Source of the DNA: Candidatus Thorarchaeota archaeon
GTDB taxonomy: Archaea > Asgardarchaeota > Thorarchaeia > Thorarchaeales > Thorarchaeaceae
DNA: 64,000 nucleotides
Direction: 5' to 3'
Assembly (NCBI GenBank): GCA_029855935.1
Contig: JAGSHN010000019.1
Span: forward strand, 1-64,000
How positions within the stretch are numbered: position 1 is the first letter of the stretch; every line of letters begins with the position of its first letter. Below the pieces are notes generated by a model. That model worked only from the letters and a program-made list of their open reading frames with translations, had not been told where the DNA came from and did no database searches. Of this stretch, positions 4,690 to 20,107 are shown in pieces. A program made the translations under genes and the position numbers.

Positions 4690-5154
4690 CGAGTTCCAAG
4701 TCTGTGTGGTCTTTGCGGTAGGTGGAATTCCGAGCAGGTAGGTGTGGCAATCGAGGGGTTCGCGAAACTAGACGAGAACGCCCCTCTAGGGATTGCAAAC
4801 TCGAGAGAGGACTATATCTCATTGGATCACCTTTGGCTACAGGTGTGCCTTTCCGAAGCGCGATGGGACATCAATTGGTCTGGGGGATCGTGTCAAAGAT
4901 TGGGTTCCCCACAAACTACTCCGCAAATTCGGACGCCATCTTGAGGGAACTCGGAGGGTTTCGCCTGAGTTACGAGGTATCAAATGCCGTACTATCTTTG
5001 CACGAGGGCCTAACTGCAGCATCGCGTCGGAAAGGGCAATCCGTTGCGGCGGTGGTCATAGCATTTGCAGCGTGTAGACAATCACAGATTGAGCAAACCG
5101 CTAATTGCTATGTCAGCTAAGACGACGGGAATGGAGATCGGAAACATCTATTGA
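4690..5154 (+). pseudogene. Degenerate TFB (TFIIB)-like cyclin-repeat remnant
   Basis: RKGQSVAAVVIAFAACRQ, then in a shifted frame LIAMSAKTTGMEIGNIY*; resembles TFB RGRS...AAxYAACR...EIAxxS...EIGRxY; CGLCG upstream in another frame. Confidence 0.35.
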
Positions 5155-5339: not shown

Positions 5340-6164
5340 ATGAAACATCTGCGCGAGCGAACCGGGAGAATGGATCGAAGGAGTTGGTTCAAAATCATCT
5401 CCGTGATCTCCTTTGCTATTGCAATTCTGACTGACATTCTACCTTTCGAACTCCCGGTATCAACTGTTCCGGATGTGAACGAAATGGTCAAGTCCAGCTT
5501 GGGCCTCCTCTTCATGTCACTTGCAGCGTGCTTCATCTTGCTCTATCTCCTTGAAACACAAGAACTACCAGCGGAGAATCTTGAAGGAATTCAAGGCCGC
5601 TCTGCAGCCGAGAAGCCTTACACTATGACGGTGGACTTTCTAGTCGGACGTTTTGATGCGCTGGAGAAGATACAGCATGACACGCGCTCTGGCGCAAGCA
5701 TCTTGATGGGTGTTTTTAGTGCTATGATATTATGGCTGCTGAATTTCGGTGGTACGCTGACTTCTTTTCAGAATGCTGTCGTCAGGGCTAGTGGGGTTGC
5801 CGTGGCAATCATCTCATGGGCGATTATGCTTTCTTTCAGAATCGACAAGGTCGAATCTCCATGGGGAACATTGGGCGAGGATCTTCTTGCCACCGGTCAA
5901 TCGGAAGAGGTCTTCAAAGAACAACTTTCGAAGTTGGTGGGGGAGAAATATGCGGTAGTCCGAAGGATGAAGGAAACCATTGGCTTTGCGGTGGGAGCCT
6001 TTATCGAGATTGTAGGGCTGGCCTATCTCGCGGACATGTTTGGCGACTTGACAAGGCCTTCAGTATTGCCTGTTTTCATACTGCAGGTTCTTTCCTTTAT
6101 CTTTCTTATCTTTGCCCTGCTATTATTCATTCTTGTTGTCCTTAGGGAAACATCCCTTGGCTAG
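5340..6164 (+). CDS. Multi-pass membrane protein, unknown function
   Basis: About 6 hydrophobic helices in a 274-aa ORF. Confidence 0.7.
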   Translation: MKHLRERTGRMDRRSWFKIISVISFAIAILTDILPFELPVSTVPDVNEMVKSSLGLLFMSLAACFILLYLLETQELPAENLEGIQGRSAAEKPYTMTVDFLVGRFDALEKIQHDTRSGASILMGVFSAMILWLLNFGGTLTSFQNAVVRASGVAVAIISWAIMLSFRIDKVESPWGTLGEDLLATGQSEEVFKEQLSKLVGEKYAVVRRMKETIGFAVGAFIEIVGLAYLADMFGDLTRPSVLPVFILQVLSFIFLIFALLLFILVVLRETSLG

Positions 6165-7848: not shown

Positions 7849-8967
7849 ATGGGTGAGTCGGAGGTCAAGATCTGGTACGAGACGAGCAGTGGCGAGAGGA
7901 GGTATGCGACTGCTGGCACTGTGGTCTGTGACCTGTCTGGTCTTGCCGAGCGTGGCGAGACCATCAGGATGATTGACCTGTCACCCCTCGCCTCCTGCAC
8001 GGGCCTCCGCGAGCTGAGGATTGTGGGGGACAGACTTCAGAGGGTCGATCTCTCGCCTCTTGCATCCTGTCCTCAGCTTGAAACACTGGTCGTGCAGTTC
8101 AACGAGCTGACGGAGATTGATCTGAGCCCTCTGTCCCACTGCGCGAATCTCAGGGAGCTTGGCCTGCGGAGGAATAGACTGAGGTCACTCGATTTGAGCC
8201 CGCTGACTGCGTGTATGCGTCTAGAGGTTCTGTCCCTTGCCGACAACGACTTCACAGAGCCCTACCTCGATTCCATGCCTCCGCTGCCGGCTCTGAGGAG
8301 TCTTCTTGTCGGTGCTGGCAGACTGCGAGAGATTGACCTGAGTCCTGTGCCTTCAAGATGTCCGTCACTCGAGTGGTTCGGCCTTGTCGGCAGGGAGCTC
8401 GAGTCTATCGACCTCTCTCCGTTAGCGGACTGTGAGCGTCTTCGGGCGGTCTGGCTTGACAATCTGTCTGTGAGGGCGGTGGATCTGTCCCCACTGGCCA
8501 GATGCTCTCATCTCAGGGAGTTCGGTGTTTCCGACTGTCGGTTTGAGTCCCTTGACCTGGCCCCACTTGCCTCCTGCTCGCATCTCAGAGAGGTGTGGCT
8601 TGAGGACCTTCCCATAGAGCGCATTGACCTTTCCCCACTGGAAGCGTCCCACGAGATTACAGAGATTTGCATCCGCTCCTGTCCGTTGTCGCATCTCGAC
8701 CTGTCACCTATCCAACATCATGATGGGCTCAGGGTGCTCGATCTTCGCGATCTGGCGGTGGATGAACTGGACATCACCCCCCTGTTCACCTGTTCCAGAC
8801 TGAGGACTCTTGAGGTCGACCCGGACGCGCACCTCACGGCCAAGCGCAAGGAGGTTCTTACGGAGGGTGAGTATGACGCACTGGACACACCGACCGTATT
8901 GGAGCGACTGAGGCAGAGAGTTCCGAGAGGACTGACAGAGATTCTTGACCGCATCGTGTGGCAATGA
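7849..8967 (+). CDS. Leucine-rich repeat protein (IDLSPL-type, ~23-aa repeats)
   Basis: About 12 repeats of IDLSPLxxCxxLxxLxL. Confidence 0.93.
   Translation: MGESEVKIWYETSSGERRYATAGTVVCDLSGLAERGETIRMIDLSPLASCTGLRELRIVGDRLQRVDLSPLASCPQLETLVVQFNELTEIDLSPLSHCANLRELGLRRNRLRSLDLSPLTACMRLEVLSLADNDFTEPYLDSMPPLPALRSLLVGAGRLREIDLSPVPSRCPSLEWFGLVGRELESIDLSPLADCERLRAVWLDNLSVRAVDLSPLARCSHLREFGVSDCRFESLDLAPLASCSHLREVWLEDLPIERIDLSPLEASHEITEICIRSCPLSHLDLSPIQHHDGLRVLDLRDLAVDELDITPLFTCSRLRTLEVDPDAHLTAKRKEVLTEGEYDALDTPTVLERLRQRVPRGLTEILDRIVWQ
8874..8966 (+). repeat. Direct repeat copy 1 (3' end of the LRR gene)
   Basis: TGACGCACTGGACA...CTGAGGCAGAGAGTTCCGAGAGGACTGACAGAGATTCTTGACCGCATCGTGTGGCAATG aligns with 12560-12649. 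Confidence 0.8.
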
Positions 8968-9251
8968 CGGGGCTCTTGAGACAGTCCCCTCTGACGCATT
9001 GGGGCAGTCTGCAGACACCAGGTATCCGTAGTCCAGCAGGTCCGGCTCGGAACTCTGAATCTGTCACCTGTTCTGCACAGGACTCCTGTGCCTCTCCTGC
9101 TATGGTGGTCGTCCAGCCTTGGCGAACAGGGCGTTTCCGCGTACTGTTTAGCTCATATGCGGGGGCCAACCCAGTCAGGTGACGAGAGAACACGAGTTTC
9201 GCATCGTGCCCGTTACTCTGTTCGTCTCTTTGAGCGAGAGCGCACTATCCC

Positions 9252-9995
9252 CTATGGGTTGATAGCCTCAATCCTGCTCCAGAGTCTATCGAGGACAGCC
9301 TCGTCGGTGATCAGTTTCGCAGTTCGGAAATAACTCGCAATTACCTCCAACTCTGTTGCGTGTGGTTTCCACTTTATGCGCCGTCCATCGGCATCCCGAA
9401 TTCGACAGGCCTCTATGAGTTTCCGGTCGAATGGCACCGCAATGTCGTATCTCCTTGATTCACGGGATCCCTTGAAGACCCAGAATCCATTATAGCATCT
9501 CGGATTGCATTCGCCTCGCAAGACATGCGCATTGTTCCGGATCTTGCGGAGTACCGATGGTTGGGGGCGTGTCCTGATGTTGGGATACACGTTCTCAATC
9601 ACAAAATGGCCTATGAAATAGAATCCTGCCCTGGCAGTATATCCGTCCTCCCAGTCTACGAGCCGTGCGTAGAACAATATCCTGTCGCCCTTTGACAGAC
9701 GGGCTAGATTGGCAGCACGGGGATATTCCTCAGGATCATCGCCATAGGTGAATGTCTTAAACTCCGGATCGTTATGTGTGGCTCTGGAGAGGTATCCTTG
9801 TGGAATAAAGACCTCAGGTGGCGTTCCTGTGACAGTGACCAAGTCCTTGTACTTGATAGCCCTAGGGCAGTGCTGAGGATCTATGTGTTTCTCTGGAAAT
9901 GTCACGAACTCAAATGTCCCGTCGCGGAACCGCGGGCTTCTGAGAGGACGGTGTCTTGTATTCACACCGACATTCACTATACACGTCTTGCTCAC
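9252..9995 (-). CDS. Nmad3-like (nucleotide-modification-associated domain 3) protein
   Basis: DGTFEFVTFPE, THNDPEF..FTYGD, LSKGDRILFYARL, YFIGHF motifs; GTG start after GAGGGGG. Confidence 0.7.
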   Translation of the reverse strand: MSKTCIVNVGVNTRHRPLRSPRFRDGTFEFVTFPEKHIDPQHCPRAIKYKDLVTVTGTPPEVFIPQGYLSRATHNDPEFKTFTYGDDPEEYPRAANLARLSKGDRILFYARLVDWEDGYTARAGFYFIGHFVIENVYPNIRTRPQPSVLRKIRNNAHVLRGECNPRCYNGFWVFKGSRESRRYDIAVPFDRKLIEACRIRDADGRRIKWKPHATELEVIASYFRTAKLITDEAVLDRLWSRIEAINP

Positions 9996-10287
9996 GTTGG
10001 CCCCCTCACCAAGCAACCTCTCTGCTCTCTCTCATTAATGTTTGTGCGCTATGCTCTTGAGAATACTCTGAAGACAGAGTCGAAGATATGGCCAATTCCA
10101 CTCGTTTCATGGATCTCGGTACATCAGCCCTTCCTCACTGAATGTTCTCTGAAATAGGAGGGAAACGGGTGGCGGTCATCTCGCTTAGTGAAGCTCGTGA
10201 CATGATGTTGGAAGCCCTAGACGCATCCTTCATATCGGTAAGCGAACATAGAACCGTGAACTAGCGATAGTCTCAGGGGTCAGTAGA

Positions 10288-11379
10288 GTGGCCACAAAAG
10301 AGGAAAGGACTGTTGAGAATCTCAAGGAGATTCTATCTGGGCTTGAATCGGGAGCCTCCATTGACTCGCTTCTTCGAAAGTGTCTTGAGGTCGCGGCGTT
10401 ACTAGGTCTTCCTGAGGAAGAGCGTAGTTGGATTATATGCGAGATTGAAGGGTATTCTCCTGGCTCTATCACAGACAAGACATACGCAACAATCCCCTCA
10501 CACTACCGGATTCCCATCTATCGATACTACAAGGCTCTCGCACGAGGTCCTAGACCTGTGCAGCTGTACGAGCCAATGGATTCGGAACTGTACGAACAGA
10601 TTCGCAGAGCGAACCGGGCCATTGAACACATATTCCTCATCCACCATCCCGCCGCCTTCCTAGAGAGCACTGCCACCTCTCTTGAACTAGTCGATACCTT
10701 TGTGATAGATAGTCCACGTGGCTATGACAGGACTGTGGTCACGCTAGTGGCGGAGATGCCAGTTTCCGCTATGAGAATGATTGTGAAGTCCGTAAGGGGG
10801 AGAATTCACAGCTTCGCCATCTCTCACCTACTTCATCTTGAGTTCGGAGAGTTCTTGGTATCAATTCTCGACGAAACCAAACACTTCGTCGCATCCAAGC
10901 TGCAAACGATAGCGCCTGACCTGTTGAAAGAATTGAACGAGATGACAAGGCGATTGGAACATGGATCGGGACATGTCACCTATGCGAATATCGCTCGGGG
11001 TTGTGTAACTGTCATTCAAGTTCTGACGGACCGCTTGATCCTTGACGAAATGATTTCTGAGGGTCAGGAAAAGCCCGCCCACGACAAAACCCGGGATAAG
11101 GTGAGCATGATTCTGAAGTGGGCATGTTCAAGACTGGGCGGTCGGTTTGGTGAAGAACGCGAATTGTTGATTGAGCTTCAGGAGCACTTCTTCCTCTTCT
11201 CAAAGTCCTTGGAGCGACTTGTTCACAAGACGCGGCACAAGAGAAGCGAGTCCATAGAACGTAGGGATGCTGGCAGGCTTTTGGCCTACCTATATCTCTG
11301 GATGGCAGATTTATTGGAATTGCTGGATTTGGCAGGCTATCCTTGGAACATATTCGCTCATCTCCAATCTGAACAATAG
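10288..11379 (+). CDS. AbiTii-like domain protein
   Basis: N-terminal SLLRKCLEVAALLG...WIICEIEGY...IPSHYR pattern typical of AbiTii; helical C-terminus. Confidence 0.65.
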   Translation: MATKEERTVENLKEILSGLESGASIDSLLRKCLEVAALLGLPEEERSWIICEIEGYSPGSITDKTYATIPSHYRIPIYRYYKALARGPRPVQLYEPMDSELYEQIRRANRAIEHIFLIHHPAAFLESTATSLELVDTFVIDSPRGYDRTVVTLVAEMPVSAMRMIVKSVRGRIHSFAISHLLHLEFGEFLVSILDETKHFVASKLQTIAPDLLKELNEMTRRLEHGSGHVTYANIARGCVTVIQVLTDRLILDEMISEGQEKPAHDKTRDKVSMILKWACSRLGGRFGEERELLIELQEHFFLFSKSLERLVHKTRHKRSESIERRDAGRLLAYLYLWMADLLELLDLAGYPWNIFAHLQSEQ

Positions 11380-11464
11380 CGTTTTGCTATTCAGTGGATA
11401 TGCGTCAGTTACATCAGACCACACGCCTCTCTTCAGTTTGGCCGTGTCAATCACTCGTACTGAT

Positions 11465-12127
11465 TCAGTCGCTTTGGTCTTGCGGCTTGATGATAAGGGA
11501 CCGGAGTTTCCACCCAAAGACCGTAAGTAGTAATCCTCCGACAGCACCAACAGCCGCAGCGAACCCGGGATGGATCATATACAATGTCACGATGCAGGCA
11601 CCATAGACTAGCGCGATTGCTGTGAGAGCAACTATTCCTCTTAGATGTAGGTCACCTACCGATATTGGGACCTTCGTAGTCGGTTGATCTAGATTACTGC
11701 TACTGGAACTGAGCTGTTTGTCATCCTTTCTCCGAGCCTTTGTGACCTTCACAACAAGATTACGGGTAATCTCTCGTGCCCGAATGCAGCTAATCAGCAG
11801 ACAGTACCTACCATCCTCTTGGAATGTGTATGATCCGCGAAAGTAGGTCTGGTGTTTCTTGTGGAGCAATGCGTATCTTTCGTCAAAGCCATCCTCGTCG
11901 ACATTCTCCTCGGGTAGCAGAAGTACGTCAAAATCGTATTCATCAATCTCTCTGACAACTATTGTTATGGTGTCGCCGGCACGTCCAGCAATTGGGAAAT
12001 ACCAAAAGTCCCCTGGATCCACATCTACCTCTTCGTCGACTATGTTTCCGTATTGAAGCCCACGCGTACTCACCACCACAACGGCAGCACAACTGCATCT
12101 GAGCACAAAAACTCTTCCCTGGTGCAA
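11465..12127 (-). CDS. Beta-sandwich domain plus two C-terminal TM helices, hypothetical
   Basis: GDTITIVVRE...FDVLLL...YTFQEDGRYCLLI followed by two hydrophobic helices; true start may be GTG ~12073. Confidence 0.7.
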   Translation of the reverse strand: MHQGRVFVLRCSCAAVVVVSTRGLQYGNIVDEEVDVDPGDFWYFPIAGRAGDTITIVVREIDEYDFDVLLLPEENVDEDGFDERYALLHKKHQTYFRGSYTFQEDGRYCLLISCIRAREITRNLVVKVTKARRKDDKQLSSSSSNLDQPTTKVPISVGDLHLRGIVALTAIALVYGACIVTLYMIHPGFAAAVGAVGGLLLTVFGWKLRSLIIKPQDQSD

Positions 12128-12193
12128 CAGAACTCGACAATATTTCTACGGGCAACAATGGTGGGATGCCGAACTGGCCAAGAGATAGCGTCG

Positions 12194-12552
12194 CTATGTG
12201 TGGGATGCGCCGGCCTCTAGCTGGTCATACATGCTCAGTCCTTCCCCCAAATACGACTCGTATACATGTTGATAGACCATCTCGCATCTCATGTTATAGA
12301 GATCCGTAGAATAAGAGTCGGCAGATTGTCAAGGGCCTCCTCAATTGCTACTCTGACAGCGGCCCGCGTTCTTTGGCTCTTGCGCCAGTCAAGAACCAGC
12401 TTCTCCTCCTTGAGGATTCGGAGAAGGTTTCTTGCGATTCTCTTCACAATCTCCCGCTCTCCTCTCTTTAGTTTCGGCTCGGGCCTAGTCAATATATCGA
12501 ACAGCGCGAGCTCCTCTTCCGTCAGGCCCTCCCTTATGTGGCGTTGTTATTC
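12194..12552 (-). pseudogene. hsdR: Type I restriction subunit R C-terminal (DUF3387-like) remnant
   Basis: E*QRHIREGLTEEELALFDILTRP...KLVLDWRKSQRTRAAVRVAIEEALDNLP, then frameshift to DSYSTDLYNMRCEMVYQHVYESYLGEGLSMY; internal stop plus 1-nt frameshift. Confidence 0.8.
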
Positions 12553-12559
12553 ATAGGAT

Positions 12560-12649
12560 TGACGCTCTGGACAAGCAGACCGCTTCAAGCAACTGAGGCA
12601 AAGTTCCGAGGGGACTGACAGAGTTCCTTGACAGTATCGTGTAGCAATG
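12560..12649 (+). repeat. Direct repeat copy 2 (degenerate LRR-gene 3' end)
   Basis: TGACGCTCTGGACA...CTGAGGCAAAGTTCCGAGGGGACTGACAGAGTTCCTTGACAGTATCGTGTAGCAATG. Confidence 0.8.
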
Positions 12650-13033
12650 GCAGCACTCGAAACAGTTCGTGGAACACGCTTGTGGCTATGGGGTTTGTCG
12701 CCATGGATATGATTGTCCGAGATAGAATACTTGCAAAGGGTACCACAACCGGAAAATCAATCAGCTCAATAGGCCTTGGAGCGGAAACATTATGACCGCC
12801 CCTACCTTTGAAGTAGCTCTATTGCATGCCTCTGACAAGAACCAGTTCCTCCTATCAGACGGCTCATAGATAAGTGTGCAGTTATGCTTGTACGTCTGGT
12901 GTAGTATGTGATCGAACATACCTGCGGCAGACACAGTACGGAGTGGGCGCTCCGAGAAGAGTTATGAATGTCCGAGTCAGATTGATTGATTCGTTCTCCT
13001 AGCGGTCACAGTCTGATATGAGAGGTTCTCACA

Positions 13034-14254
13034 ATGACTCCCACAGGCCAACAGCCCATAGAGTCTAGTCTTGCAATGAGAGGAGCAGCGGATGCACTCC
13101 GAGCAGTCTTGTTGGAAAATTGCGTTGAGGTCTACTCTGTTGATGTATCTGACATCGAGTTCGATCCGTATGTACAGATGAAATGTCAGAATTGTATCAA
13201 CTATGGCAGCTCATATCGTTGTCCTCCTTACACTCCGAGATACCATCAAGCACGCCACATAGTGGAGCGATTCTCGAATCACTATCTTGTGCTCATGCGT
13301 GAAGACAGGTTTCAATGGATTGAAACTCAGCGAGCGAGGCACCCTGACTACTCCTACAAGCGGCTTGTCAATCTCGCATCACGGAATTGGGATGTCACGT
13401 CATACTGGAAGCACCACAGGCTGATGCTAAGTATCAGAAGATTCCTCCAACAGGCGTCAGATGGGGGATTTGTCGTGCTTGGTCCTGGAGGTGGCTGCAG
13501 ACTCTGCCGAGTGTGCGCGGTACATCAAGGTGAACCGTGTCGGAGACCCACCGAAGCAATGGCTTCACCCGAGTCGTGGGGGATAGATGTCTACGGAACA
13601 CTCATTGAGAATGGAATCGAGATTGAAATACCTCCGCGAAGAGTATTTACTCGCGTTGGATTTGTTGCGTCTAACGTAGTTGTGCCAGAGGCTCGAATTG
13701 CAGACGGTTCTCGTTCGGATTGCACAGCCATCGGCAAGTATTCTAGGGATGCAAAGAGTGTAGATAGACTACTTGAAGAACTCAACAAGATTCCATTTGC
13801 AGAAGTGGTTGAAGTTCAATCGCTGAATGGATGTGAGATAGATCTTACCCGATGTAGCCAATGTGATCGCAATACCACGTGGCTCTGCGATCGGAGCTTT
13901 CTTCCCTCAAGTGAATTGGAGGATTTCCTTCATAAACGCATTTGTGTGGTCGTCCAATTGTCGGGACGGCAATCATTTGGGAAGAGGATATCCTACCTCG
14001 TTGATATCTGTCATAGGTGCGGATTCTACGATGCCTTGGCCTTTTGCAGTACAGTCTGCGATATATGTGACCAGTGCAGTGAACATGGATGTATGTTGAC
14101 AAGGAAAAGGACTATGAAATGGGGTAACAAACTTGCCTATCGCTGCCTTGGATATTTGGGATGGGTCTCAGGTCTGGAACAGGCCCCTCGGCGACAATCT
14201 CCCCTTGTCTTCTTGGTCATGAGTTCCTATGTAACACAGCCACAATCCCGATGA
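13034..14254 (+). CDS. Tandem DUF2284-like Cys-rich metal-binding protein
   Basis: CQNCINYGSSYRCPP, GGCRLCRVC...PCRRP...SPESWGIDV; second degenerate repeat CSQC...C...CDICDQC...C. Confidence 0.8.
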   Translation: MTPTGQQPIESSLAMRGAADALRAVLLENCVEVYSVDVSDIEFDPYVQMKCQNCINYGSSYRCPPYTPRYHQARHIVERFSNHYLVLMREDRFQWIETQRARHPDYSYKRLVNLASRNWDVTSYWKHHRLMLSIRRFLQQASDGGFVVLGPGGGCRLCRVCAVHQGEPCRRPTEAMASPESWGIDVYGTLIENGIEIEIPPRRVFTRVGFVASNVVVPEARIADGSRSDCTAIGKYSRDAKSVDRLLEELNKIPFAEVVEVQSLNGCEIDLTRCSQCDRNTTWLCDRSFLPSSELEDFLHKRICVVVQLSGRQSFGKRISYLVDICHRCGFYDALAFCSTVCDICDQCSEHGCMLTRKRTMKWGNKLAYRCLGYLGWVSGLEQAPRRQSPLVFLVMSSYVTQPQSR

Positions 14255-14287
14255 AACGCGGGTTTCCGTAAGGCGGTAGCACAACCT

Positions 14288-15826
14288 CTAGAACTGGCGA
14301 TCTAGCCAGTAGAACCAATCAAAGTCGCTACTTTTCTCTTCATCCTCACAGATTCCCTGTTCCCCAAAGTCATCTGCGAACTCTCTTCTGATGAATTCGT
14401 ACCAGCTATCATGGTTGGGAAACTGTATTGTTATGTCTCTTGGGCTTGGTGATGTGTGTTTCATCTGATATGTCCACTCGGGGTCCTGTGTTGAATCAGT
14501 AATCGTGAATATGAAGTTGAGTTTTCGATCACTAGTGGACACTGCACTCCTCAGGATTTTTGAGAACTTCGCGAATTTTCTTTTCACATATCTGTAGACC
14601 TCGCTGTGATTTGTTTCGTCATCGCCTTCCTTGAACTTGAGCTCAAATTCCACTCTCTCGGGGCTCAGGCACTTGATTTCGAGTTCTGCTTTCAAGACAT
14701 TGTCTTGGAGAGTCATATAGGGTCTCGCTCGATCCCACTCCTGCATCTCGTCGAAAAGCGTCAATAGAAACGGAAAAGTCATGATTGAAAGATGGTATAT
14801 GCTGTCACAGTTGTGTGACGCAATCGCGCGGAGTATGGTTCTCCTGATAAGGAATTGTCGCGCGTCCTCACGGGTAAAAAGTCTAGTGTCATCGAGAAGG
14901 AAGTCAGCCTCTAGGAAATAGACTAGATTCTTGATCAGAATGATGCAGCTCAGCACCCCGTGGTCATAATCATCCAATGCGCTCAGGAATTTCTGGTAGA
15001 ACTTGTATTGTGTGTGTACTCTGAATATCCTAGAGTCATTCCTATGACTGGGTAGCTGTTCATCGCCAGCTGAGTTGTTGTCGGTATCAGGGGGTCCTTC
15101 GCGGCTGTCATAGTCTATTGTAGAGCTAATCAGTTTCAACGTATTATAGCACATATGCTGAAACATTGGTGAGAGTCCGTACTCAAGCTCGCGAACTGAT
15201 ATTCTCCCAAGGCGGTCAAACAACTTGCGGGCTTCTTGATTCACCTGAAAGACATTCTCCATAGCCAGTCCCAAGTCGTGGCAGAGTGCAATGATACACC
15301 ACATAGCCTCCTTCTCTTCAGCCTCTATCTTGAGCTCGTCATTCACAGGTCCATCAGACAGGCGCAGTTCTCCACAGTCGACACCGTCTATTCCAACTTC
15401 TTTGAGTGCAACAATTCCCAACATAAACACGCGCATTACGTGTGCTATATGATCTCGTACCCGTGTGGTGATAGGAGAAAACGATCTCTCGAAACCACCA
15501 AGAGTATCAAAGAGATTGCTCAGCCTGTTCACTCCTATAGCGAACGAGTCGTGCCAACTCTTTTCTCTAGCATCCTTGTACTTGAGGAACACTATTGCAT
15601 CGCTAAGCAGGTGTTTCCATAGCCGTTTCAGACTGGCGGTCTGCTTTGTCAAGTCCTTGTCATGCAGGCCATCCACAAGTTCGTGGGTTATGTTCTTCTT
15701 CTTCTTCTCTCCCCATATTTCCGCCGAATATCTGAATCCGATGAATGCTATGTCACCAACAATGGCCTTGAATCTCTCTATCAAGTCCTCATCTGATGTG
15801 ATTGTTATGGAGAACTCGCGTGCCAA
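14288..15826 (-). CDS. Large HD-domain (metal-dependent phosphohydrolase-like) protein
   Basis: RDHIAHVMRVF, ALCHDLG, DHGVLS, IASHN, FDEMQEWDR; TTG start with GGAGGG upstream; 19 nt after the rSAM stop. Confidence 0.8.
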   Translation of the reverse strand: MAREFSITITSDEDLIERFKAIVGDIAFIGFRYSAEIWGEKKKKNITHELVDGLHDKDLTKQTASLKRLWKHLLSDAIVFLKYKDAREKSWHDSFAIGVNRLSNLFDTLGGFERSFSPITTRVRDHIAHVMRVFMLGIVALKEVGIDGVDCGELRLSDGPVNDELKIEAEEKEAMWCIIALCHDLGLAMENVFQVNQEARKLFDRLGRISVRELEYGLSPMFQHMCYNTLKLISSTIDYDSREGPPDTDNNSAGDEQLPSHRNDSRIFRVHTQYKFYQKFLSALDDYDHGVLSCIILIKNLVYFLEADFLLDDTRLFTREDARQFLIRRTILRAIASHNCDSIYHLSIMTFPFLLTLFDEMQEWDRARPYMTLQDNVLKAELEIKCLSPERVEFELKFKEGDDETNHSEVYRYVKRKFAKFSKILRSAVSTSDRKLNFIFTITDSTQDPEWTYQMKHTSPSPRDITIQFPNHDSWYEFIRREFADDFGEQGICEDEEKSSDFDWFYWLDRQF

Positions 15827-15845
15827 TTGAAACCCTCCGTCGTAT

Positions 15846-16838
15846 CTACTGTGGCAATTGAACTGTCTTTCGATTATTGCCGGTTTTGCCTGCTATTCCA
15901 CCTAAAACTCTCTGAGCAAAGCAACCCGTTTCATCGTTAGGGAGCATACTTGCAAGGCATTTTGGAAAAAACATCCTCATCCAGTCGGTTCTGAGTAGTT
16001 TCTGCAATGAAACATGTCTTACATTGACGGGGCTCATCTGTGCAGCATATTCTTTCAGGGCTTCGCAAGGCGCCACGAACCCATTCGGCTGAATGGTAAT
16101 GCGGGAACCCAAGCTGCATCTCTGTTGCGTCAGAGATGGAACCAAGCTGAACGGAGCACCCAGCCTGATAAACGCTCTATCTTCCGGCGGGAGTCTGCGA
16201 ACGATTTTGATAAACTCCCCGAATTCTCCCGGTGTCATCTCAAGTAGATCCCTATTGCGTTTTCCTCTGCCCTGAGGAACAAACATCAGTATACCAAGTC
16301 TGGAGAGGCCAATGTCTTTTGCCACACGAATTGTTTCACCAAGAGTATAGTAGTTCTTCTTGAGGGGCACGAAATGGCCAGTACACAGAATCCCTGCGGC
16401 ACGCGCACGACGCACGGACTCGACCAAATTGTGAAAGCTTCCTCGCGTTCCGGTGATGGAATCATGGATACTCGCACTAGGACCGTGAAGGCCAAACGCA
16501 AAGCGGCTGACAAACTCTCTCCATCGCCTGAAATCATCAATCGCGATCGGGACCATTTTGGTTCTTCGAGAGTTGTATATATTGCCGGACGTATACACGA
16601 CAACTTGCAGTCCTCTCGAATGGGCATATCTGGCTATAGTCTCGAAATCACTTCTTAGTATAGGCTCTCCCCCCGATATGCATACTCTGTCAGCACCGAC
16701 TGCCTCGCAATCGGCTATTATTGTCAGCCACTCTTCTGTGGTGAGTTCATAAGGGTCGCAATCTCCCCCATTTGACGAACACATCAAGCAACTGAGGGGG
16801 CACTCACGAGTTATCTCCAACGTGACCTCCAGTCCCAT
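15846..16838 (-). CDS. Radical SAM protein with SPASM/Twitch domain (PqqE-like peptide-maturase type)
   Basis: CPLSCLMC, ISGGEP, HDSITGTRGSF, C-terminal CSLG...QPNGFVAPC...C...GCFAQ; ATG 16838 preceded by GGAGG. Confidence 0.92.
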   Translation of the reverse strand: MGLEVTLEITRECPLSCLMCSSNGGDCDPYELTTEEWLTIIADCEAVGADRVCISGGEPILRSDFETIARYAHSRGLQVVVYTSGNIYNSRRTKMVPIAIDDFRRWREFVSRFAFGLHGPSASIHDSITGTRGSFHNLVESVRRARAAGILCTGHFVPLKKNYYTLGETIRVAKDIGLSRLGILMFVPQGRGKRNRDLLEMTPGEFGEFIKIVRRLPPEDRAFIRLGAPFSLVPSLTQQRCSLGSRITIQPNGFVAPCEALKEYAAQMSPVNVRHVSLQKLLRTDWMRMFFPKCLASMLPNDETGCFAQRVLGGIAGKTGNNRKTVQLPQ

Positions 16839-16911
16839 CGCCTCCGTTTGCCGGTTCTCCCGACATCGCTCTATCGGCCGCAATACTCCCGTTGTCTGAA
16901 GCTGCCTCTCT

Positions 16912-17013
16912 TCATTCAGCTGGTGATTCTCTCACCCAACCCTCTGCTGTGCCACTCCACAGTTGGCCTGTTGGGTTGCTGATAATACGTGAGTTTGAAG
17001 CGTTGCCGGGCAC
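16912..17013 (-). CDS. Putative RiPP-like precursor peptide MPGNASNSRIISNPTGQLWSGTAEGWVRESPAE (33 aa)
   Basis: Translated by hand (below the ORF-track cutoff); co-oriented, 73 nt upstream of the rSAM ATG; two Trp in the C-terminal part. Confidence 0.55.
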   Translation of the reverse strand: MPGNASNSRIISNPTGQLWSGTAEGWVRESPAE

Positions 17014-18169
17014 TCCGTTTTCATTCTTGCTCCTTGTATTGTATGTAAGACTTCTCTGCTATATGATTTTTCATTGAATAGCACATGTCCTCTCATATCA
17101 CCCAGTGCTGTGCGGTTGAATTTAAGGTCAGAGTCTTGCCTTGTGATTTGGGTCATTCCATTTTGCCTCTGTACACCCACTTTTTACAAGTGGGGTGAAT
17201 CACAAACGAGCTTCGATCCTCGAAGTTCCTCTGACGTATCCCAACTGGCTCTCAGGTTCCACCATTGTGACCACAATGCCATTCATGCACAGAGACCTGC
17301 GTCAACTCTCTTGTAAGGCGAGAACAGGACTCAAAGACCTCAAGCGCAGAGCTGAGGGAGTCACCATTTGATTGCAACACCACGATGATCTCTCCTGCCT
17401 CTGACCCGGTAAGTGCAGGTCCCTGTTATTGACATAGCAGACTTGGCTGGGACTATCTCAGCTGCATACCCTCTCGAATGGGAGCATCAGCACCTGCGTT
17501 TGCGCTGATAGCAGGGATCTGCTATCGCCTTTTGCTTTACGTCTTTGTCCCTAGAGACAGTGACCGCTTTCCAGTTGATAAGTTCGGTACGGGAATCGGG
17601 ACCCTGGATTGACTGGCGCTTGTTGACGCGGAGTGTCATTTTAGGTCCTGCTATGGTTGGCGTGTCGGTGGTATTGACAGGCGTAGCACAGCACAGTCCG
17701 AAGGCAGAGTTTATTACGTACGGCTGAGCATCACTACGTGAGCATTCTTCTTCACAAGGAATGATGCTCCAGTGTACAATTTATACAGACTAACAGTCAT
17801 ATTCTCATTTTTTTCTTGAGTCTATTCGTGCCCCTATCTCCGTGCACTGACATATCGCGGCAGAAGGATGATGAGAAACGCAACAAAGAGTCCGGCCGGG
17901 ACCGCGATGGTGGCATGAGAGGCCCAGAAAGAGCTCCACCACTCCCAACCCCCACTAATAACGTATGTTCCAAGGCACCCACACTGAGCCTGTCTATCAA
18001 TCATTCAACGCGGGTTCTCTCACGTATCGTGCGTGTGCGAACCATAGCAGGCCTGACTGTGACTCCTCGAAATGATCCCGTCGACCGACGTGTCCACAGA
18101 CGCACCCCGACTCGGTCGACAGTATGATTATAGGCGCCAGTCACACACCGACGATGGAGCCGATTTGCT

Positions 18170-19204: not shown

Positions 19205-19394
19205 TGCGGACCTCTCCTGCAGCGTGTTGCATCGTTCTATGCATCGTGCTCTAATAAGATTCTAGGCGGCAAGTCCCGTTCCCTAGACTCCGGCAACAGT
19301 TCTTTGCCGAGACGCAAAGCGCTTAAATCCCAGTTTGTCCAAACATATGGATGCGTGAGCGTGCGAATATGCGGCTCACGTATCGGTTATACTC

Positions 19395-19468
19395 CCCCCC
19401 GACGCCTGGCAGGGGCTGCCACTGTGACCATTGAAACAGTGCTGGCTCACGCCGGGAGCGTTGGGGGG
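19395..19468 (+). ncRNA. Long stem-loop in the leader of the NYN gene (putative cis-element or RNA antitoxin)
   Basis: Four stacked helices: 19395-405/19458-68, 19406-10/19451-55, 19413-18/19443-48, 19420-25/19436-41; 10-nt loop; TATA-like TTAAAT at ~19323. Confidence 0.55.
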
Positions 19469-19504
19469 TGTTATATCTTTATCATAGCAGTAAGGGGACG
19501 GCAA

Positions 19505-20107
19505 ATGCCTCAGCGACCTCATGCCTGTCTTTTCGTCGATGGCGGCTACATGGCCAAGGTGAACGACAACTTCGATGGTCGGATTGAGCTGAGAAGGTTT
19601 CTCGACGATCTCGTCACGATGCAGGGCTATTGGAGGAAGCGTACGTATTGGTTTGATGCTCTTCCGTGGTGCGGGAGGGGCTCTACCGAGGAGGACCGCC
19701 GACGACGTGACAATAAGCACAGGTTTCTCGACTCCCTGGCATATTTCCCGCGCACTGAGATCTATCGTGGTAGGGTTGTGAGACGGGTTCCGACCCCGGA
19801 GGGGGATGGTTCCCCCGTCTATGTTCAGAAACAGGTCGATGTGCTATTGTCTCTCAAGATGGCAGAGATTGCCTTTAGGGGCGATGTGAAGTTCATCTCT
19901 CTCATCGCTGGCGACTCCGACTTTGTTCCCGCCGTACGGCTCGCAAAGAATGCAGGCGTTGTTGTCACACTCATATTCGCCTCTATGAAGGGGGTCCTGA
20001 CTCACAATGAGTTGAAGAGGGAGGCTGACGAGAGGATTGAATTGACTCCAGACCTCATTCGGCCCTACCTGATGAGGGAGAACGATGACGGCACGGTCGT
20101 GGAGTAG
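19505..20107 (+). CDS. NYN (LabA/DUF88, PIN-like) ribonuclease
   Basis: FVDGGY, QKQVDV, LIAGDSDFVPAV, ELKREAD; ATG 19505. Confidence 0.92.
   Translation: MPQRPHACLFVDGGYMAKVNDNFDGRIELRRFLDDLVTMQGYWRKRTYWFDALPWCGRGSTEEDRRRRDNKHRFLDSLAYFPRTEIYRGRVVRRVPTPEGDGSPVYVQKQVDVLLSLKMAEIAFRGDVKFISLIAGDSDFVPAVRLAKNAGVVVTLIFASMKGVLTHNELKREADERIELTPDLIRPYLMRENDDGTVVE

Follow-up and report, generated by a model that had tools for sequence, protein, structure and literature searches.

The genes considered here lie in a 64,000-nucleotide stretch (the window) formed by positions 1 to 64,000 of contig JAGSHN010000019.1, assembly GCA_029855935.1, from a Candidatus Thorarchaeota archaeon with a genome of 2.97 Mb. 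On the minus strand, a gene for a radical SAM enzyme (15846..16838) is followed after 19 nucleotides (nt) by a gene for a predicted dimetal hydrolase of the HD/phosphodiesterase (PDE) fold (14288..15826), and a gene for a Cys-rich DUF2284 protein (13034..14254) converges on the latter from the plus strand. A 33-codon open reading frame (ORF; 16912..17013, minus strand) precedes the radical SAM gene. An earlier reading made from the letters alone (the sequence-only reading) had placed the three minus-strand ORFs correctly, with the radical SAM ORF and its CPLSCLMC motif 73 nt past the peptide stop codon and the 512-residue HD ORF behind its own Shine-Dalgarno (SD) sequence, but overlooked the DUF2284 gene. 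It had also rightly seen an AT-richer island: positions 9000–17500 have a G+C content of 0.49, the remainder of the window has 0.57, and the whole genome has 0.56. Comparison with other loci showed that a two-slot cassette is built around the radical SAM enzyme as its constant member; in the window, it consists of the enzyme with HD in slot 1 and DUF2284 in slot 2. The nearest relatives of these genes are found in Thorarchaeota.

The radical SAM ORF runs from an ATG at 16838 to 15846 and encodes 330 residues. It matched PF04055 with an E value of 1.6e-19 (71 bits; cut-off 29.5) and contains both the CxxxCxxC and the GGEP motifs of the superfamily, the cysteines being 97–99% conserved in a family that is further marked by the motif FVPQGRG; 86 radical SAM proteins were found in the homolog searches. 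The SPASM model PF13186 is present in most homologs, and on the window enzyme it scored 17 bits (E 0.007), under the cut-off of 21.5. Of the six C-terminal cysteines of the family, the Thorarchaeota enzymes keep just three, so that their reduced C-terminal Fe-S domain appears Twitch-like, most of the family being SPASM-like. When the NCBIfam models were searched, the best score was 82.8 bits for the window enzyme and 121 bits for a full-length ortholog, in both cases under the cut-offs, which were all at least 231 bits among those shown for the window enzyme. The best sequence match in the PDB was PqqE, and cytosylglucuronate decarboxylase, a nucleoside enzyme, also matched (E 4e-17). The pVip model of PADLOC matched residues 6–90 only (35 bits), and a full-length match was absent. 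Distant members of the enzyme family are encoded without cassette partners on two viral contigs (L174:6980-7855 and L175:3951-5015), the second copy lying among replication-type genes; no HD relative was found on viral contigs.

The HD gene extends from a TTG at 15826, preceded by GGAGG, to 14288. Its 512-residue product matched no Pfam family and no PDB sequence, and Foldseek returned no match at E 0.001 or better. Nevertheless, the HD label given in the sequence-only reading held: all 103 full-length distant homologs share, without exception, six putative metal ligands (H129, H183-D184, H289, H338, and D359), and the best VIA structural matches of a model with a pLDDT of 87 were HD/PDE proteins throughout (Z up to 9.5, a middling value for a helical protein; root-mean-square deviation approximately 5.0 Å over some 234 aligned residues). 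Atlas features likewise linked the protein to the HD and HD-CE clusters. Its model and ligands suggest an active dimetal hydrolase belonging to an unnamed HD/PDE family. The homolog searches gave 476 HD-like proteins, and the unnamed family counts 247 clusters at E 1e-30 or better. A distant HD family, 21–30% identical to the central part of the protein, was seen in many Loki-, Hermod-, and Heimdallarchaeota (L043-L087).

The proposal that the radical SAM and HD proteins form a conserved functional pair was borne out by synteny and by gene fusions. A strong HD match led to 34 genome loci, and at 30 of these an intact radical SAM gene was present within 3 kb; among the remaining four, one begins at a contig end and two contain fragments of the gene. 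The two genes are adjacent in many archaea and bacteria, including Asgard archaea, Bathyarchaeia, Methanosarcinales, Chloroflexota, and Bacillota, and they are fused in P0207, P0232, P0272, P0333, P0336, and, partially, P0331, one fusion being followed by a DUF2284 gene. In L177:5687-11120, a fused gene lies beside type I restriction-modification genes, Nmad2, TIR, and HMUDK_hel, and in L178:872-6318 one lies beside NDK, CYTH, and uracil-DNA glycosylase (UDG) genes. Decayed or partial copies were also observed, among them a 117-residue radical SAM remnant (L019:6643), an HD gene without the enzyme beside a dTMP-kinase-like gene (L033:5877-8353), and an HD protein that was matched in two pieces (L172/L173, genome G055).

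The recurrent neighbors of the radical SAM gene were UDG (52 loci), Dcd/dUTPase-fold proteins (33 loci), DUF2284 (27 loci), and small helix-turn-helix (HTH) regulators, and some loci contained a thymidylate synthase (TS)-like gene with HMUDK_hel; no conserved protease or exporter was found among the recurrent neighbor clusters. After dereplication of the loci at 90%, 60 had enough flanking sequence for counting. UDG (33 loci) and DUF2284 (14 loci) never occurred together, nor did HD (46 loci) and Dcd-TM (11 loci), the Dcd/dUTPase-fold protein that replaces HD beside the radical SAM gene. The bias towards HD was removed by considering only the loci that had been found by the radical SAM gene alone. 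Of those with full flanks, 30 of 31 contained either HD (19) or Dcd-TM (11), none contained both, and UDG and DUF2284 were again never together. A quick tree of the enzyme requires many partner changes, including swaps between the strongly supported sisters L013/L016, L018/L101, L117/L119, and L141/L154.

The strongest hint comes from Dcd-TM, the alternative occupant of slot 1. Ser111, Arg115, and Glu138 are the catalytic residues of Escherichia coli Dcd. None of the 24 Dcd-TM proteins keeps any matching residue, and all 24 end in a C-terminal hydrophobic helix and have kept the DPG motif; the score against the dCTP deaminase model TIGR02274 was 68 bits vs a cut-off of 93. A nucleotide-binding fold that has lost catalysis and is placed on a membrane would have the look of a receptor-effector. 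Because a seemingly active HD hydrolase can replace Dcd-TM, the two may respond to the same small molecule, which the product of the constant gene would make.

As to slot 2, the DUF2284 protein of the window has 406 residues, with an N-terminal DUF2284 domain (PF10050, E 7e-28) and a second Cys-rich half. The convergent DUF2284/HD layout is repeated in the related loci L001 and L003. The window clade carries DUF2284 and its sister clade (L007, L012) carries UDG, so that the gene at 13034-14254 belongs to the system. Structural comparison gave the DUF2284 protein a weak and tentative resemblance to nitroreductases (Z up to 7); Foldseek gave no match for the protein at E 0.001 or better, and a profile comparison between UDG and DUF2284 showed no homology (probability 9.6%). 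The cassette UDG is family 4/5-like and retains the Fe-S cysteines, the Asn, and the HP motif, in addition to invariant Arg and Asp pocket residues of its own; against the UdgX model it scored 78 and 66 bits (cut-off 190). In L127:1433-2647 and L159:1813, the UDG partner is lengthened to 400 residues by a C-terminal domain, which may resemble Panacea/SocA-type antitoxins, and a TS-like gene lies directly upstream of the enzyme.

Of the 87 Thorarchaeota genomes, 5 carry the cassette, and so do 8 of all 268 Asgard genomes; the carriers are spread over five families, and four congeners, including one that is 98% complete, lack it. Among its neighbors are restriction genes of types I and II, TIR, Nmad2, insertion sequence transposases, and integrases, and further enzymes of nucleotides or bases, namely TS-like with HMUDK_hel, Nmad2, NDK, and CYTH. 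In the window, the low-GC island holds defense-type cargo together with the cassette: Nmad3 (9252-10016, minus strand), AbiTii (10288-11379, plus strand), and a type I restriction R subunit represented by a C-terminal fragment (12289-12492, minus strand), with a membrane protein gene (11465-12127, minus strand) between the last two. A stand-alone NYN nuclease (19304-20107; PF01936, E 8e-11) is encoded just beyond the island. Inspection by eye revealed a degenerate direct repeat of approximately 90 bp (8874-8966 and 12560-12649), corresponding to the end of a leucine-rich-repeat gene. It flanks the Nmad3-AbiTii block, and the radical SAM cassette lies outside the bracketed block.

The sequence-only reading had taken the 33-codon ORF for the precursor of a peptide made by ribosomes and modified after translation (RiPP), with a Trp-containing core. 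The ORF is present at 16912-17013, but it could not be confirmed as a gene. It starts with a GTG, and the AGGAG element upstream lies 16 nt before this codon and 5 nt before an ATG (17024) in another frame. When leaders of the same composition were simulated, 31% gave an ORF of 20–70 residues with at least two Trp, and 12% gave such an ORF plus an SD-like word. The local score of the peptide in the upstream regions of 80 other enzyme copies was 17–34 at best, compared with 174 against itself, and no similar upstream ORF was found with the closest enzyme copies (45–50% identity; L001, L003, and L005). The lack of a conserved short ORF upstream of the orthologs had been named in advance as a finding that would refute the RiPP proposal, and none was seen in the 80 copies or in the nearest Thorarchaeota. 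When 1393 short ORFs from intergenic DNA up to 2.5 kb away from the enzyme were clustered, none was shared by distant loci; the clusters joined near-identical strains or came from shadows of regulator genes and from a regulator resembling ribbon-helix-helix proteins, and the window was represented in none of them. In other loci, the site upstream of the enzyme is occupied by a winged-helix or XRE regulator, UDG, or a Dcd-fold gene, and because these genes abut the enzyme, many loci have no room for a precursor. Thus, the 33-codon ORF is most likely a chance reading frame in the leader and lies outside the system.

The leader itself shares the block CTTAAAT (17120..17126, minus strand) with those of L001, L003, and L005. 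In the alignment of the four Thorarchaeota leaders, this invariant block lies approximately 250–290 nt upstream of the radical SAM start and may be an archaeal TATA box. A search of the leader DNA against 87 related genomes gave only two 23-nt chance matches, and Rfam and tRNA scans gave no match. The idea that the peptide is what an upstream gene (regulator, UDG, or Dcd) has left behind was rejected, as the best E value in profile searches of the leader was an unconvincing 0.017. One DNA run, possibly the non-independent source of the assembly, was letter-identical in the leader, and no assembly indel was seen. A dispersed intergenic repeat, which starts with CATCTCATTTTCAACAAC and ends with GGATGGAAG, was observed near DUF7347 genes in several Thorarchaeota (L001:6640-6700; two copies in L003, at 4860-4980 and 5490-5620; L005:1120-1200).

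The cassette is real and apparently undescribed, its interchangeable partners all point to the chemistry of nucleotides or DNA bases, and, judged by the circumstantial signs of its patchiness, the island, and its neighbors, it is most likely antiviral. We tentatively favor the reading that it is a mobile antiviral system based on nucleotide chemistry, in which the enzyme makes a non-canonical nucleotide that the slot 1 protein reads or destroys; this is plausible, if somewhat short of an even chance. The radical SAM enzyme would convert a (deoxy)nucleotide, probably a pyrimidine, into the non-canonical product. The Dcd-fold protein would then read the product by binding it as a receptor, with a membrane effector coupled to it, and the HD protein would act as a hydrolase that either is switched on by a nucleotide or destroys nucleotides, for example by depleting a pool of them. 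Slot 2 might supply the trigger, in the form of a base cut from viral DNA, or might reset the system or protect the host. Substrate, product, and sequence of reactions are all putative in this proposed pathway. Several observations weigh against this reading. The nearest characterized relatives of the enzyme by sequence are peptide or cofactor maturases (PqqE, E 1e-36; SkfB), and neither core gene fits a PADLOC model past the weak N-terminal pVip match. With looser flanks, L102 contained HD, DUF2284, and Dcd-TM together, and about one-quarter of the loci lack a slot 2 gene. The Fisher P values for exclusivity are overstated because the loci are related, and a shared role of UDG and DUF2284 would follow from their exclusivity only, since they show no homology. 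Many of the neighbors are housekeeping genes, the neighbor counts having no baseline for defense-gene enrichment, and many hosts are deep-sediment archaea, in which any defense role is putative.

The pairing of the slots also mirrors that of a pool sanitizer with a glycosylase, of which Dut and Ung are the established example. By this logic, a modified or damaged pyrimidine would be processed directly, without a signal: HD or the Dut-fold protein would clear the pool, UDG or DUF2284 would clear the DNA, and the radical SAM enzyme would make or remove the modification, which may serve to restrict viral DNA that is modified or to modify the cell's own. The conserved Fe-S, Asn, and HP features of UDG with its own pocket residues and the association with TS-like, HMUDK_hel, and Nmad genes are consistent with this explanation. 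However, a sanitizer would need neither to be anchored in a membrane nor to lose its RSS motif, and other parts of the window genome already encode a Dcd-fold protein and a UDG of the canonical family 4 type. We regard direct processing as possible but unlikely. Taken together, it is probable that either the read-out of a made nucleotide or the direct processing of a base is correct. The synthesis of a nucleoside-type metabolite or cofactor unrelated to defense, in which HD would carry out the phosphatase step and DUF2284 would be the redox partner, would agree with SPASM/Twitch matches such as BlsE and BtrN, which act on small molecules, with the weakly nitroreductase-like, Cys-rich nature of DUF2284, and with the dedicated HTH regulators that lie upstream of the enzyme in other loci. 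It is nonetheless improbable, as conserved transporters and extra tailoring genes are missing, such a route hardly offers a place for a DNA glycosylase or for a dead Dcd anchored in the membrane, and the cassette is distributed very patchily.

Polypeptides are frequent substrates of SPASM-class enzymes, and the anaerobic sulfatase-maturating enzymes modify a partner protein. The fusions and the tight coupling with HD would be expected if the radical SAM enzyme similarly modified its slot 1 partner, but HD and Dcd-TM have unrelated folds with no common motif and swap beside near-identical enzymes, and the UDG/DUF2284 slot would be left unexplained; we therefore consider a maturase of this kind quite improbable. 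The RiPP proposal, in which the 33-residue peptide would be cross-linked at WSG and WVR, draws on the position of the ORF 73 nt upstream of the enzyme, on the PqqE-like best sequence matches, and on the fast divergence that RiPP precursors can undergo. Given that neither the 80 upstream regions nor the 2.5-kb surroundings contained a conserved counterpart, that many loci lack the space, that the SD element serves another frame, that chance alone readily yields such an ORF, and that no protease or exporter is conserved, it is very improbable and was rejected. The more general suggestion of the sequence-only reading, that the enzyme pair has a role in signaling or defense, remains plausible.

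Viperin is a radical SAM enzyme that alters a nucleotide for defense. The cassette resembles pVip in that a radical SAM enzyme is proposed to change a nucleotide in defense; it differs in the SPASM- or Twitch-like C-terminus, the fixed HD/Dcd and UDG/DUF2284 partners, and a match of 35 bits only. In the Kongming system (KomABC), which signals by dITP, a dead housekeeping nucleotide hydrolase, KomB, is the receptor (10.1101/2024.12.20.629578), which sets a precedent for the role proposed for Dcd-TM. The likeness lies in the combination of a base-modifying enzyme with an inactive housekeeping hydrolase as receptor and in modular partners that include uracil-DNA glycosylases (10.1101/2024.12.20.629578). 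It is a likeness in logic only, since the constant gene of the cassette encodes a radical SAM enzyme, the signal and effector are putative, and no KomA adenosine deaminase, KomB HAM1, or KomC Sir2 was found among the recurrent partners. DS-4 (NTTI, DefensePredictor), a validated anti-phage system, consists of TS, a dNMP kinase, a hypermodification protein, and TIR (PMC13092281). Its gene types (TS, hypermodification/5hmdU kinase-type, TIR, and Nmad) flank the cassettes L034, L138, L140, L157, L163, and L177, but neither a radical SAM nor an HD gene is listed for it (PMC13092281). No DS-4 genes lie beside the window cassette. The triceptide, darobactin, and PqqE maturases share with the cassette a radical SAM enzyme with a C-terminal auxiliary-cluster domain, which is putative and reduced in the window enzyme, whereas the cassette has no conserved precursor, protease, or exporter, and its NCBIfam scores are far under all the cut-offs shown. 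The operon of TIGR03916, DUF4130, and UdgX also couples a radical SAM gene to a family 4-like UDG, but its radical SAM family is another one, not among the 25 best NCBIfam matches, and the cassette UDG is far under the UdgX cut-off. Neither HD nor Dcd-TM is known as a partner in that repair operon. The claim that the system is undescribed held in the searched literature, which lay outside subscription papers and Iyer et al. 2013: no description of the gene combination was found, and DUF2284 was mentioned just twice, in passing, among 8.4 million papers.

It is rather doubtful that the cassette represents a new class of immune signaling in archaea and bacteria, with a novel nucleotide second messenger made by a radical SAM/SPASM enzyme, interchangeable effectors (a dead Dcd/dUTPase-fold membrane receptor or an HD hydrolase), and a trigger or off-switch in the form of UDG or DUF2284. 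For catching the product, the membrane protein with the dead Dcd fold would offer a ready trap. If the proposed nucleotide chemistry is correct, roles would be given to three uncharacterized families, namely the FVPQGRG radical SAM enzymes, the unnamed HD family, and DUF2284, and antiviral defense would include a radical-chemistry route to a non-canonical nucleotide that goes beyond the viperins and reaches the Asgard archaea.

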